Of a stretch of 64,000 bases of DNA, positions 9,006 to 11,410 are shown one piece after another (positions within the stretch are counted from its first letter, which is position 1; each line of letters opens with the position of its first letter). This DNA is from Alphaproteobacteria bacterium. Lineage in GTDB: Bacteria; Pseudomonadota; Alphaproteobacteria; GCA-2731375. The DNA lies in NCBI GenBank assembly GCA_965232515.1, contig CBDDPY010000002.1:32001-96000 (forward strand), given 5' to 3'. The position numbers and the translations under genes are program-made. The notes beneath the pieces were generated by a model. It was not told where the DNA came from, made no database searches, and worked only from the letters and a program-made list of their open reading frames with translations.

Positions 9006-10172
9006 ATGGCCTACGATGTGATCGTTGTCGGCGGCGGCGTGATGGGCGCGGCGACCGCGTTCAATCTCGCCGACATGGGCGTGAAGAAGGTGCTGCTGCT
9101 CGAACGCGACCGCGTCTGCTCCGGCGACACGCTGAAATCTTGCGCCATCGTGCGCACGCACTATTCCAATCCGACGACCTGCCGCATGGCCTGCATCGGC
9201 CGCGAGATCCTGGCCGACTTCGACAACCGCGTCGGCGGCGCCTCCGGCTTCGTCAATTCCGGTTACGTCATCTTCGCCGGCGACGATCTGGCCGACGGGT
9301 TCGTCGACAATATCGCCCTGCAGCAGCAGGCCGGCAGCGGTGTGGAGCGGATCGACGTCGACCAGGCGCTCGAGCTGCATCCGAAGCTTGAGCGCGATCG
9401 CATCGCCGTCGCCGCCTACGAGCAGGCGTCCGGCTATGCCGATCCCGAGCAGACCGTGTTTTCCTATGTCCGCCGCGCCCGCGAGCTCGGCGTCGAGGTG
9501 CGCGAGGGCGTCGTCGTCGCGGGCCTGAGCGAGGCCGGCGACCGCGTCACTGGCGTCGTCACCGACCAGGGCGCCTTCGCGGCCGGCACGGTGGTGGTCG
9601 CCGCCGGCGTCTGGACCAACGGCATCACTGGGTCCGTCGGTGTCCGCTTCGACTACGACATCGTCAACCACAAGGTGGTGACGATGGGCTTCGACTACGA
9701 TTACACGGGCGACCGCTTTCCGGTCGTACGCGATATCTCCGGCTTCGCCTATTACCGGCCGAAGGGCCGCCACGCGCTGGTCGGCGACGCCGCCCGCGGC
9801 ACGGACCTGCCGCGCGCCGACTATACCGACGAGACCTTGGATGCGACCGAGGCGGCGTTTTTCCGCGACAAATTGGCGGCCTCGAACACGGACGCCGGAG
9901 CGGCGCATCTCGTGCATCACTGGGCCGGCCGCTACGACGTCTCGCCGGACTGGAACCCGATGATCGGCGGCCTGCCGGGCAAGGACGGGCTGGTGACGAT
10001 CTGCGGCTCGTCGGGCGGCGGCTTCAAGCTCGCCCCCTGCATCGGCCTGCTGATGGCCGAGCTGATCGTGCACGGCGAGGGCCGTACCCTGCCGGTCGAC
10101 GAATTCGCGCCGAACCGGTTCGCGACCGGCCAACGTTTCCGCAACGCTTATGGCGTCGGCGCGATCGCCTGA
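9006..10172 (+). CDS. FAD-dependent oxidoreductase (DadA / sarcosine oxidase beta-like)
   Basis: YDVIVVGGGVMG Rossmann motif; SPDWNPMIG and GGGFKLAP C-terminal motifs. Confidence 0.9.
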   Translation: MAYDVIVVGGGVMGAATAFNLADMGVKKVLLLERDRVCSGDTLKSCAIVRTHYSNPTTCRMACIGREILADFDNRVGGASGFVNSGYVIFAGDDLADGFVDNIALQQQAGSGVERIDVDQALELHPKLERDRIAVAAYEQASGYADPEQTVFSYVRRARELGVEVREGVVVAGLSEAGDRVTGVVTDQGAFAAGTVVVAAGVWTNGITGSVGVRFDYDIVNHKVVTMGFDYDYTGDRFPVVRDISGFAYYRPKGRHALVGDAARGTDLPRADYTDETLDATEAAFFRDKLAASNTDAGAAHLVHHWAGRYDVSPDWNPMIGGLPGKDGLVTICGSSGGGFKLAPCIGLLMAELIVHGEGRTLPVDEFAPNRFATGQRFRNAYGVGAIA

Positions 10173-10263
10173 ATTCGACGTCGCGGTCGCATCTCGGGTT
10201 TTCTTCCGCGCCCGCCTGCGCTATCGATGAGCCATTCGGTTCTGCGGGAGGCGTCATGACGGT

Positions 10264-10533
10264 TAGCCCACATTTCTCATCGCCATCATGGTCTGCGCGG
10301 CGTCGTGCTGTCGACAGGGCAGGAGCGCTGCGCGGCGCGATGTGGGGCATCGGGCAAGCAGCGCGACGCCCCCTGTCGGCAGCACGGCGCCGCCCGAAGG
10401 GTCGCGCGCAGGCGCCCGCTCGCGGCGTCGCGGCCCTCAACCGTAGTCCCCGCTACGCTTTTCGACCCGCTCCTGGCGGATCGGGCGCCTGTGCGCGACG
10501 CAGACCGTGATGGGGGTGAGAAATGCGGGCTAG
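10264..10533. mobile_element. MITE-like non-autonomous element (267 bp plus duplicated TAG) in the 5' end of the VOC gene
   Basis: 34-bp imperfect terminal inverted repeats at 10264-10297 and 10499-10532 (30/34 match); TAG at both junctions; two internal hairpins; no transposase. Confidence 0.8.
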
Positions 10534-11410
10534 AGGCATCGATCACCTGGTTTTATGCGTGCACGACCTTGAAGAAGCACAGCAGGCCTATCGGTCCTTC
10601 GGCTTCACGACGACGCCGAAAGCCGTGCATCCCTTCGGCACTGCCAACTCGTTGATCCAGCTTCAGAACAACTTTCTGGAGCTGTTGATCGTCGACGATG
10701 CCGGCAAAGTCCCGCCGATGGCGCGGGGGAAATACAGCTTCGCGGCCGCCGCCCAGACGTATCTGACCGCGCGGCAGGGCATGTCGGCGTTGGTCTTCGA
10801 GAGCGGCGACGCCCGGGCCGACCATGACGAGTTCGTCGGCAAGGGACTGGAGACTTACGATCCGGTCGACTTCTCACGTTTGGCGACGCTGCCCAACGGC
10901 AGCGAGGTCGAGGTCTCGTTCTCGCTTGCCTTTCTGACCGAGCGGCAGATGCCGGGCACGACGTTCTTCGTCTGTCAGCAGCATGCGCCCGAGCACTTCT
11001 GGAAGCCGCAATACCAGCGCCACGACAACGGCGCCGTCGACGTGGTCGAGGTGGTGATGTTCGCGCCGAAACCGCATGCGCTCGCGGACTTCTTCGGAAA
11101 GCTGCATGGGACCGAAAACGTGGCCAAGGACGAGGGGCGTCTTACCGTCGATACCGGCCGCGGCGTCATCGCGGTGCTCGATCCGACTCTGTCGGCCGAA
11201 CGACTTGACGTGCCGGCCAGCTTCAACATCGTCGAGACGCCGCATTTCGCCGGCTACCGCATCGCCGTCGCCGATCTGGCCGCCGTCGAGGAGGGGCTGA
11301 CCAAGAACGGCGTGCCGTTCCGGCCGACCGGCGACATGCTGCAGATCGGTCCGGCCGACGCCCTCGGCGTGTTCATCGAGTTCACGCAAGCGGCGGCGCC
11401 GTCCGACTGA
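10523..11410 (+). CDS. VOC / glyoxalase-like family protein
   Basis: GIDHLVLCVHDL, GF...HPFGTANSLIQL..NFLEL and H.NGA motifs; the ATG lies inside the MITE end; ancestral start probably 10256. Confidence 0.88.
   Translation: MRARGIDHLVLCVHDLEEAQQAYRSFGFTTTPKAVHPFGTANSLIQLQNNFLELLIVDDAGKVPPMARGKYSFAAAAQTYLTARQGMSALVFESGDARADHDEFVGKGLETYDPVDFSRLATLPNGSEVEVSFSLAFLTERQMPGTTFFVCQQHAPEHFWKPQYQRHDNGAVDVVEVVMFAPKPHALADFFGKLHGTENVAKDEGRLTVDTGRGVIAVLDPTLSAERLDVPASFNIVETPHFAGYRIAVADLAAVEEGLTKNGVPFRPTGDMLQIGPADALGVFIEFTQAAAPSD

Follow-up and report, generated by a model that had tools for sequence, protein, structure and literature searches.

On the available text of two reports, donation of a start codon by the end of a MITE (miniature inverted-repeat transposable element) is a known kind of event. 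Read-out from the inverted repeat of MITEAba12 (Acinetobacter/Moraxellaceae) is described as giving the first four residues, MQQS, of a coding sequence in three genomes (Adams & Brown 2019, PMC6382973), and pneumococcal BOX elements as having boxC-encoded start codons without good Shine–Dalgarno (SD) sequences (PMC3049150). A 2024 review of prokaryotic MITEs covers, in the portions available, promoters, IHF sites, RNase cleavage, gene inactivation, small RNAs (sRNAs) and in-frame fusions (Rickettsia palindromic elements, RPE); the terms 'start codon' and 'ribosome binding' do not occur in it (PMC10969869). Here we describe a 265-bp MITE lying in the first codons of a VOC-family gene, in a 64,000-nt stretch of alphaproteobacterial DNA (contig CBDDPY010000002.1; hereafter the window, to which all positions refer, strand + unless stated). 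The element appears to hand the gene a new start codon from its own inverted repeat. The host genome (G000) is a 7.39 Mb assembly, 96% complete, of 65% GC DNA; one other genome of the same genus (G001) was used for empty sites and for ratios of non-synonymous to synonymous substitution (dN/dS).

A MITE separates the VOC gene from its native start

The 265-bp MITE has entered the VOC gene at a TA between its third and fourth codons (Table 1). The corresponding site in G001 is empty—its flanks abut, reading ATG ACG GCG AGA GGC ATC GAT CAC (MTARGIDH)—and VOC orthologs start M-x-x-RGIDHLV or M-x-RGIDHLV. The native start at 10256 reads ATG ACG GTT AGC, and the new start at 10523 reads ATG CGG GCT AGA GGC ATC GAT CAC. 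In the VOC protein, PF13468 scores 111.4 bits (gathering threshold 25.1), with residues 6–189 matching profile positions 1–170 of 176. Sequence and profile alignment support regeneration, by the right inverted repeat, of an in-frame start with a strong SD and a protein of native length. With the TAs counted in, the inverted repeat (10264–10302 versus 10494–10532) spans 39 nt and is 85% complementary. The G001 ortholog (L032, G001:C486, P0003) has just 223 aa and an AT-rich low-complexity tail (KIKKISKIFRFSQF...) near a contig end; this is probably a chimeric or mis-assembled contig end, not a real truncation.

Fourteen full-length copies are present in G000, 92–100% identical to the window copy over a 269-bp stretch that includes both TAs, alongside solo ends, fragments and truncated copies; more copies occur in G001 and related genera. 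The target site is Y-TA-R. TA is found at both ends of 10/14 copies, the other four being degraded at one or both ends. Most copies have G...C just inside the TA and two have A...T, this base being an inverted-repeat position; immediately outside the right-hand TA the 14 copies carry either G or A, and empty sites in G001 (n = 4) fit a 2-bp duplication. With only TA duplicated, the element proper runs from 10266 to 10530, and its 265 bp plus one TA make a net gain of 267 bp. We rejected a 4-bp CTAG/NTAN duplication: the direct repeat fails in at least 6 of the 14 copies, and TA fits. The ORFs (open reading frames) within the element are only GC-rich open frames common to all copies, without a transposase gene. 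Judged by its sequence the element is a MITE: short, devoid of transposase, with inverted ends, a target duplication with empty sites, and dispersed copies.

Most of this locus had been anticipated in the original prediction. The native SD and ATG, the TGA at 10508–10510, the right-repeat SD and the ATG at 10523 all lie where it had placed them. Its break at codons 3–4 agrees with the G001 empty site and ortholog N termini, its 267 bp of inserted DNA with a 265-bp element plus the 2-bp TA, and its in-frame restart to a same-length protein with MRARGIDHLV, 295 aa, whose Glyoxalase_3 domain begins at residue 6. The ORF list bears out an 84-codon upstream ORF ending 12 nt before the new ATG, and the predicted fold lets the left repeat pair with the new ribosome-binding site and ATG, as proposed. 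The suggested TAG duplication was wrong, since the flanks of 14 copies show TA and the third base is part of the inverted repeat. A single-copy element lacking empty sites, which would have spoken against the proposal, is at odds with the 14 copies in G000 and the empty sites in G001.

Four start-replacing insertions in one genome

Reading outward from the ATG at the 28 ends of the 14 copies (24 ends bear this ATG), four open long ORFs with high GC at third codon positions (GC3), and the family profiles of these four fused ORFs begin at residue 4–7. They are the VOC gene (insertion at codons 3/4; MTARGIDH in G001, MRARGIDH here), mnmG (codons 2/3; MDRYDV to MRARYDV; TIGR00136, 749 bits, residue 5 at profile position 1), a 643-aa OYE/FadH-like flavoenzyme (a reductase; codons 9/10; MAGEASAYPNLF to MWANLF; residue 4 at profile position 1) and a LivF/UrtE-like ABC ATPase (codons 4/5; (GTG)SDPDPIL to MQADPIL; residue 7 at profile position 1), the first sequence being that of G001 in each case. 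Empty sites exist in G001 for all four genes, and mnmG is single-copy in G000. In-phase sites within the first ten codons make up 2.5% of 'tolerated' sites under a crude null (Y-TA-R sites against rough gene models), against which 4/14 copies gives a binomial probability of 3e-4. Gene callers already start the four proteins at the inverted-repeat ATG and mark neither element nor upstream ORF, which is of relevance to annotation.

Frequency at gene starts, a check that the original prediction had called for, thus divides: 4/14 copies lie within the first 2–10 codons, and most other copy ends adjoin stop codons or the 3′ ends of genes. All four fusions leave by the same element end (chance 0.125), from which we draw nothing, both orientations sharing the stop geometry described below.

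Several other copies lie close to coding sequence. Nine nt lie between the left end of L011 (G000:C2:4869003–4869270) and the downstream ATG of a DppB/OppB-like permease (MSIFLAKRLL...), whose native SD region has thus been displaced; ATG ATG, in frame within the inverted repeat, could lengthen the permease by 14 residues. Copy L013 (G000:C2:2551273–2551542) sits inside the 3′ end of a gene, where a minus-strand ORF ends ~50 nt into the element and its last ~17 codons are element-coded.

A predicted hairpin and a pass-through reading frame

The 321-nt stretch of the VOC locus has a predicted fold of −213 kcal/mol (z = −9.3) with its two ends paired, the AUG pairing with element positions 8–10 in the minimum-free-energy (MFE) structure. 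Longer transcripts of the four fusions are predicted at −238 to −255 kcal/mol, ends again paired, and the 21 nt spanning SD and AUG have mean pairing probabilities of 0.90–1.00 in 4/4 transcripts (VOC, 0.90). Against the 16S tail of G000 itself (GGATCACCTCCTTTCT), the new SDs give duplexes of −14.5, −14.5, −13.6 and −8.9 kcal/mol (VOC first, LivF last), compared with −10.3, −3.5, −7.7 and −11.5 kcal/mol for the native SDs in the same order; the new SD is stronger in 3/4 genes, the native one in LivF. An Rfam search (E up to 1) of 9900–10900 gave no match.

In all four genes the native start and SD are kept upstream, opening an 83–90-codon ORF through the whole element. This ORF stops 12 nt before the new ATG at a TGA in three cases and 5 nt before it at a TAG in one, with the SD inside the gap. 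Coupling is described as nearly abolished at a stop–start distance of ~20 nt (Huber et al. 2023, PMC10666635, available text); since it survives below that distance, the 5–12-nt gaps fall within coupling range. Upstream ORF and new start have the spacing and SD of a termination–reinitiation pair, and dependence of the second on the first would be predicted. Were the upstream ORFs translated, they would yield four nearly identical Arg-rich peptides of 83–90 residues (...SPHFSPPSWSARRRA...RGVAALNRSPRYAFRPAPGG...) of no known family. At the LivF-like locus (L014, G000:C2:1614597–1614864) the native GTG overlapped the stop of the upstream gene (GTGTCTGA), as it did in L133 (GTGA), a fusion in another phylum considered below; translation there would need two successive coupling steps.

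We propose the following sequence of events. Insertion places the SD and ATG of the right inverted repeat in frame, and the VOC gene would then be translated from 10523 as MRARGIDHLV and not MTVRGIDHLV. The whole element would be co-transcribed with the gene, its ends pairing in a very stable predicted hairpin that buries the new SD and AUG. Ribosomes would still initiate at the untouched native SD and ATG 10256, translate the 84-codon ORF and melt the hairpin; after the TGA 12 nt before the new ATG, either these ribosomes would reinitiate or fresh 30S subunits would bind the exposed SD. With the same architecture at mnmG, the OYE/FadH-like reductase and the LivF-like ATPase, the element would behave as a self-rescuing insertion at gene starts. 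This full chain—insertion, restart at 10523, a hairpin melted by upstream-ORF translation, and the same at three other genes—we hold to be evenly poised.

The new ATG might instead work with an access that is independent of the upstream ORF: co-transcriptional access ahead of long-range stem formation, an RNase III cut through the hairpin or a shorter transcript from an internal promoter. The evidence for the new start serves this alternative equally, and internal sub-hairpins of the element (10297–10319/10371–10393 and 10401–10421/10479–10499) could delay end-to-end pairing. RNase III cleavage at Correia inverted repeats and outward promoters in MITEs are documented, on the available text (PMC10969869; for promoters also PMC6382973). 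Two further ends have their ATG in frame 48–57 nt upstream of intact native starts (AroQ, LysE) and are tolerated without an upstream ORF. On the other side, a promoter scan of the element, crude for this bacterial group, found no sigma-70-like site on the + strand and one weak − strand site, and the end-to-end stem is predicted to be very stable, with the energies and pairing probabilities given above. Independent access also leaves unexplained why fusions occur only at ends where the ORF stops near the ATG. We consider it rather doubtful, if a serious contender.

That last point rests on a comparison of stop geometry. Among 269-bp copies, whichever way round they are read, the host-phase ORF reaches its stop 12 or 3 nt short of the ATG in 15/16 cases; in a related 270-bp family (four other genomes) it mostly stops ~180 nt early or not at all. 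Pooling G000 with these four related genomes, fusions are found at 4/16 ATG ends with an ORF stop ≤25 nt from the ATG versus 0/28 others (Fisher 0.013). A bolder, tentative reading is that the MITE subfamily is a portable translational-coupling cassette. The 267-bp insertion is a multiple of 3, the host-phase frame is open in both orientations and stops 3–12 nt before an outward SD and ATG, and the gene would become a two-cistron unit in which translation of an ~85-codon Arg-rich peptide is needed to melt a hairpin of ~−200 kcal/mol and restart. If true, this would explain the colonised gene starts, including that of single-copy mnmG, and gene expression would come to depend on whether the upstream ORF is translated and on the state of the hairpin or of RNase III.

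Several points count against coupling and against its generality. The pooled test confounds genome with geometry, and within G000 alone the contrast is 4/13 versus 0/11 (p = 0.067). Open frames come cheaply at 65% GC, two of the three forward frames through the element being open; for this reason we rejected the pass-through ORF as a sign of selection. The three 269-bp fusion copies share their ORF by descent, which leaves about three independent draws, not five. The terminal ATG itself is poorly kept: 19/28 scored ends in G001 have AGG, and 20/40 ends of related genera have ATA, AGG or GTC. As the wider family does not conserve the ATG, the start would be a by-product of the terminus and not a selected feature of the element. 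Start fusions number 0/9 among ATG ends in G001 and 0/20 in related genera, and 1/121 ends in other species among the matches listed.

The one fusion elsewhere, L133 (Acidobacteriota; an NtrC-like regulator), is an independent case with a different, 288-bp MITE. Its native GTG opens a 96-codon ORF that crosses the element and terminates 8 nt past the first base of the new ATG, and the Response_reg domain begins at residue 6. G000 is nevertheless enriched in fusions (4/24 versus 1/150 elsewhere among the matches listed; Fisher 0.0013), for which the candidate causes are its subfamily's stop geometry, a burst in the recent past and weak selection.

Table 1 Coordinates of the native start, the MITE and the VOC gene in the window
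Feature	Position	Strand	Basis
Native SD of the VOC gene (GGGAGG), now ahead of the upstream ORF	10245..10250	+	Sequence; region conserved in the G001 empty-site ortholog
Upstream ORF: native ATG, 3 native codons, 81 element-coded codons, TGA 10508–10510	10256..10510	+	ORF list (84 aa)
TA target-site duplication, left copy	10264..10265	.	Flanks of 14 copies; G001 empty sites
MITE proper (265 bp); termini of IS1380 type, transposase ORF absent	10266..10530	.	14 genomic copies; 17-nt terminus
Left terminal inverted repeat; predicted to pair as RNA with the new SD and AUG	10266..10302	.	Repeat search; MFE structure
Right terminal inverted repeat with outward-facing SD and ATG	10494..10530	.	Repeat search; sequence
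SD-like tract GGGGGTGA, followed by GAA (3 nt) and the new ATG; G run ends 6 nt before the ATG	10512..10519	+	Sequence
Second in-frame TGA, 3 nt ahead of the new ATG; blocks read-through from the old start	10517..10519	+	Sequence, frame table
TA target-site duplication, right copy; T closes codon 3 (GCT), A opens codon 4 (AGA)	10531..10532	.	Sequence, copy flanks
VOC (Glyoxalase_3) gene as now read, MRARGIDHLV..., 295 aa plus stop	10523..11410	+	ORF list; Pfam PF13468

Are the interrupted genes still in use?

The genes with the insertion probably still work, using the new start. Relative to G001, dN/dS is 0.10–0.18 for the four genes (VOC, 0.165). Their element copies differ from the family consensus by 2.6–7.8%, and the chance that all four ORFs would stay open under neutral drift of that age is 0.004, a substitutions-only estimate that takes each copy's divergence from the consensus as time since insertion—an assumption that weakens the argument. 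The VOC and MnmG proteins could have no other start. A stop lies 3 nt upstream, and the next in-frame VOC start codon is a GTG at codon 13, which would delete the first strand and His8; for MnmG, the next start codon loses the GGGHAG motif, which runs from residue 11.

Transcript and protein records give a mixed account. In an RNA library of a ~5%-diverged relative, one 334-nt contig covers 9982–10315 without gaps, crossing the native start and entering the left repeat; that relative therefore has the VOC insertion too. Weighing against any wider use of these data, the RNA runs (n = 4) yielded just contigs, at depth 2–8, from relatives 90–95% alike, with DNA carry-over possible; and no RNA contig listed crosses the right junction (10532) into the gene, which is uninformative on expression either way. 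Metagenome scans for the right junction, with an exact 21-mer and a degenerate 26-mer, had no match. At the protein level, five of the 14 members of the VOC 90% cluster start MRARGIDH (295 aa; G000 and four others, 91–93% identical), seven MTAR and two MAAR. The four public MRAR proteins are suggestive, although MRAR could arise from MTAR by one base change. In the cluster tree the MRAR rows are not resolved as one clade, and are compatible with a single origin.

The insertions may alternatively have inactivated the genes, wholly or nearly so, the in-frame ATG being coincidental and the genes young pseudogenes that have yet to decay. Consistent with this, folding predictions bury the new SD and AUG, and the VOC, OYE and LivF genes have paralogs at 29–43% identity. 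The new-ATG forms of OYE, LivF and MnmG are unique to G000 in their 90% protein clusters, so those three insertions may be recent, and the four MRAR VOC lineages sit on longer tree branches than most MTAR ones. Arguing the other way are four separate in-phase insertions within codons 2–10, far above the crude 2.5% expectation; the inclusion of the genome's single mnmG among them; the joint neutral probability of four intact ORFs; the VOC insertion in the ~5%-diverged relative; and the four other full-length public VOC proteins that start MRARGIDH. We therefore rate inactivation as improbable.

Origin and spread of the element

In a scan of species-representative genomes the terminal 17-mer GTGAGAAATGCGGGCTA occurs at at least 113 loci, where about 69 matches to single 17-mers would be expected by chance. 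Among the matches listed, 54/121 ends have an inverted partner within 430 bp, and the paired ends delimit short elements of differing lengths and interiors in Acidobacteriota, Planctomycetota, Gamma- and Alphaproteobacteria and other groups. With the terminus in many phyla, start donation could be widespread, though rare per copy (1/121 ends, among the matches listed). At at least six partnerless loci, in other phyla, a transposase gene of the IS1380 family lies 67–250 nt inside the exact 17-nt terminus; these transposases match PF13701 and NF033539 (227–238 bits, cut-off 180). As an identical terminus adjoins IS1380-family transposases, we take the MITE to be an IS1380-lineage derivative.

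The IS1380 family typically has a 4–5-bp target duplication and CC ends (ISfinder). The present element departs from this, as TA fits and the adjacent base co-varies; in L133 the left flank is TTAG and the right flank CTAG. An IS630/Tc1-mariner origin would fit a TA duplication at a YTAR/CTAG-like target, and was dropped because there is no DDE_3 (PF13358) in G000 and the terminus flanks IS1380 transposases. A PF13701 profile search of G000 peaked at 22.4 bits, below the 34.7 cut-off; no cognate transposase was found in the 96%-complete assembly, and the copies here would therefore be orphans. A search of G000 for an autonomous partner turned up just solo ends and truncated copies. The original prediction's call for a transposase with matching ends is thus answered in part, by IS1380-family enzymes in other genomes, with none above cut-off in G000.

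The sub-terminal 10–12 nt of the arms (10280–10292 and 10504–10516 in the window, with equivalents in the 13 other copies) differ between copies and co-vary within a copy, TCAAACCCTGCATGG accompanying CCGTGCAGGGTTTGA and TCACCACCCTCATGG accompanying CCGTGAGGGTGGTGA; this reflects either several source subfamilies or selection on arm pairing. A 57-bp internal segment (10317–10373, element positions 54–110) recurs alone, at 82–95% identity, in related genomes without the rest of the element, with at least 13 matches in G014 and more in G013, G004 and G010. It has the look of a short repeat in its own right, or of a module common to several element families. In G004, a 270-bp related copy with a GTC-type end (L106, G004:C4:1717013–1719280) lies between divergent genes whose native ATGs are 2 nt and 13 nt away; one neighbour encodes an MCGRYSL protein that we take to be SRAP/YedK-like.

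Co-varying arms, a very stable and structured predicted RNA, and copies almost only at gene boundaries could also describe a selected regulatory module (an RNA switch or sRNA target) recruited to genes, as opposed to a tolerated transposon. Against this stand the lack of any matching Rfam family, the functional unrelatedness of the four genes, the copies at stop codons and 3′ ends, and a terminus that also borders transposases, and many short unrelated elements, in different phyla. The empty sites in the sister species further show that the genes work without the element. We regard recruitment as very improbable indeed.

Comparison with known systems

Correia/NEMIS elements of Neisseria are a close functional parallel, being hairpin MITEs with a TA duplication that are co-transcribed with genes and affect them post-transcriptionally; the available text describes them as acting through promoters, IHF sites and RNase III cleavage, and they derive from another IS lineage (PMC10969869). 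The RPE, too, are small palindromes found in frame in unrelated housekeeping genes that are not destroyed (PMC10969869). As described in the same available text, the RPE are translated within the host protein, whereas here two in-frame stops end the element ORF and the protein would restart at the element end. With IS1380 insertion sequences (NCBIfam NF033539, Pfam PF13701) the element has its terminus in common, and it differs in having no transposase and a 2-bp TA duplication. Termination–reinitiation in operons, in the available account, likewise has an upstream ORF stopping a few nt away from the SD and start that follow (Huber et al. 2023, PMC10666635). Here the upstream ORF is no gene: the insertion created it as transposon-coded filler, and the coupling is predicted.

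If restart at the element end is true, a transposon insertion in a coding start need not be a knock-out: a MITE would at a single stroke exchange the gene's ribosome-binding site and opening codons, leaving a leader that is both structured and translated. This would be a natural route to rewired translational control, and a test case for termination–reinitiation across a very stable hairpin. Our literature search, with subscription journals outside it, returned no account of a bacterial MITE taking over from a native start with a coupled upstream ORF left in place.

MITEAba12 is the nearest precedent, in that the MITE end donates the start codon, as here. On the available text it is 113 bp long, folds at ~−24 to −27 kcal/mol and is thought to act via an outward promoter; neither a native start that has been displaced, nor a pass-through upstream ORF, nor a buried SD is described (PMC6382973). 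The element here is 265 bp long, folds at ~−210 kcal/mol or lower, and replaces native codons 1–3 (or 1–9) in 4/14 copies within one genome. New relative to MITEAba12 and its kin are these four recurrences in a single genome, the only mnmG included, with native starts demonstrably displaced, as the empty sites show; and an architecture of hairpin, pass-through ORF and adjacent stop that, as modelled, predicts obligatory coupling.

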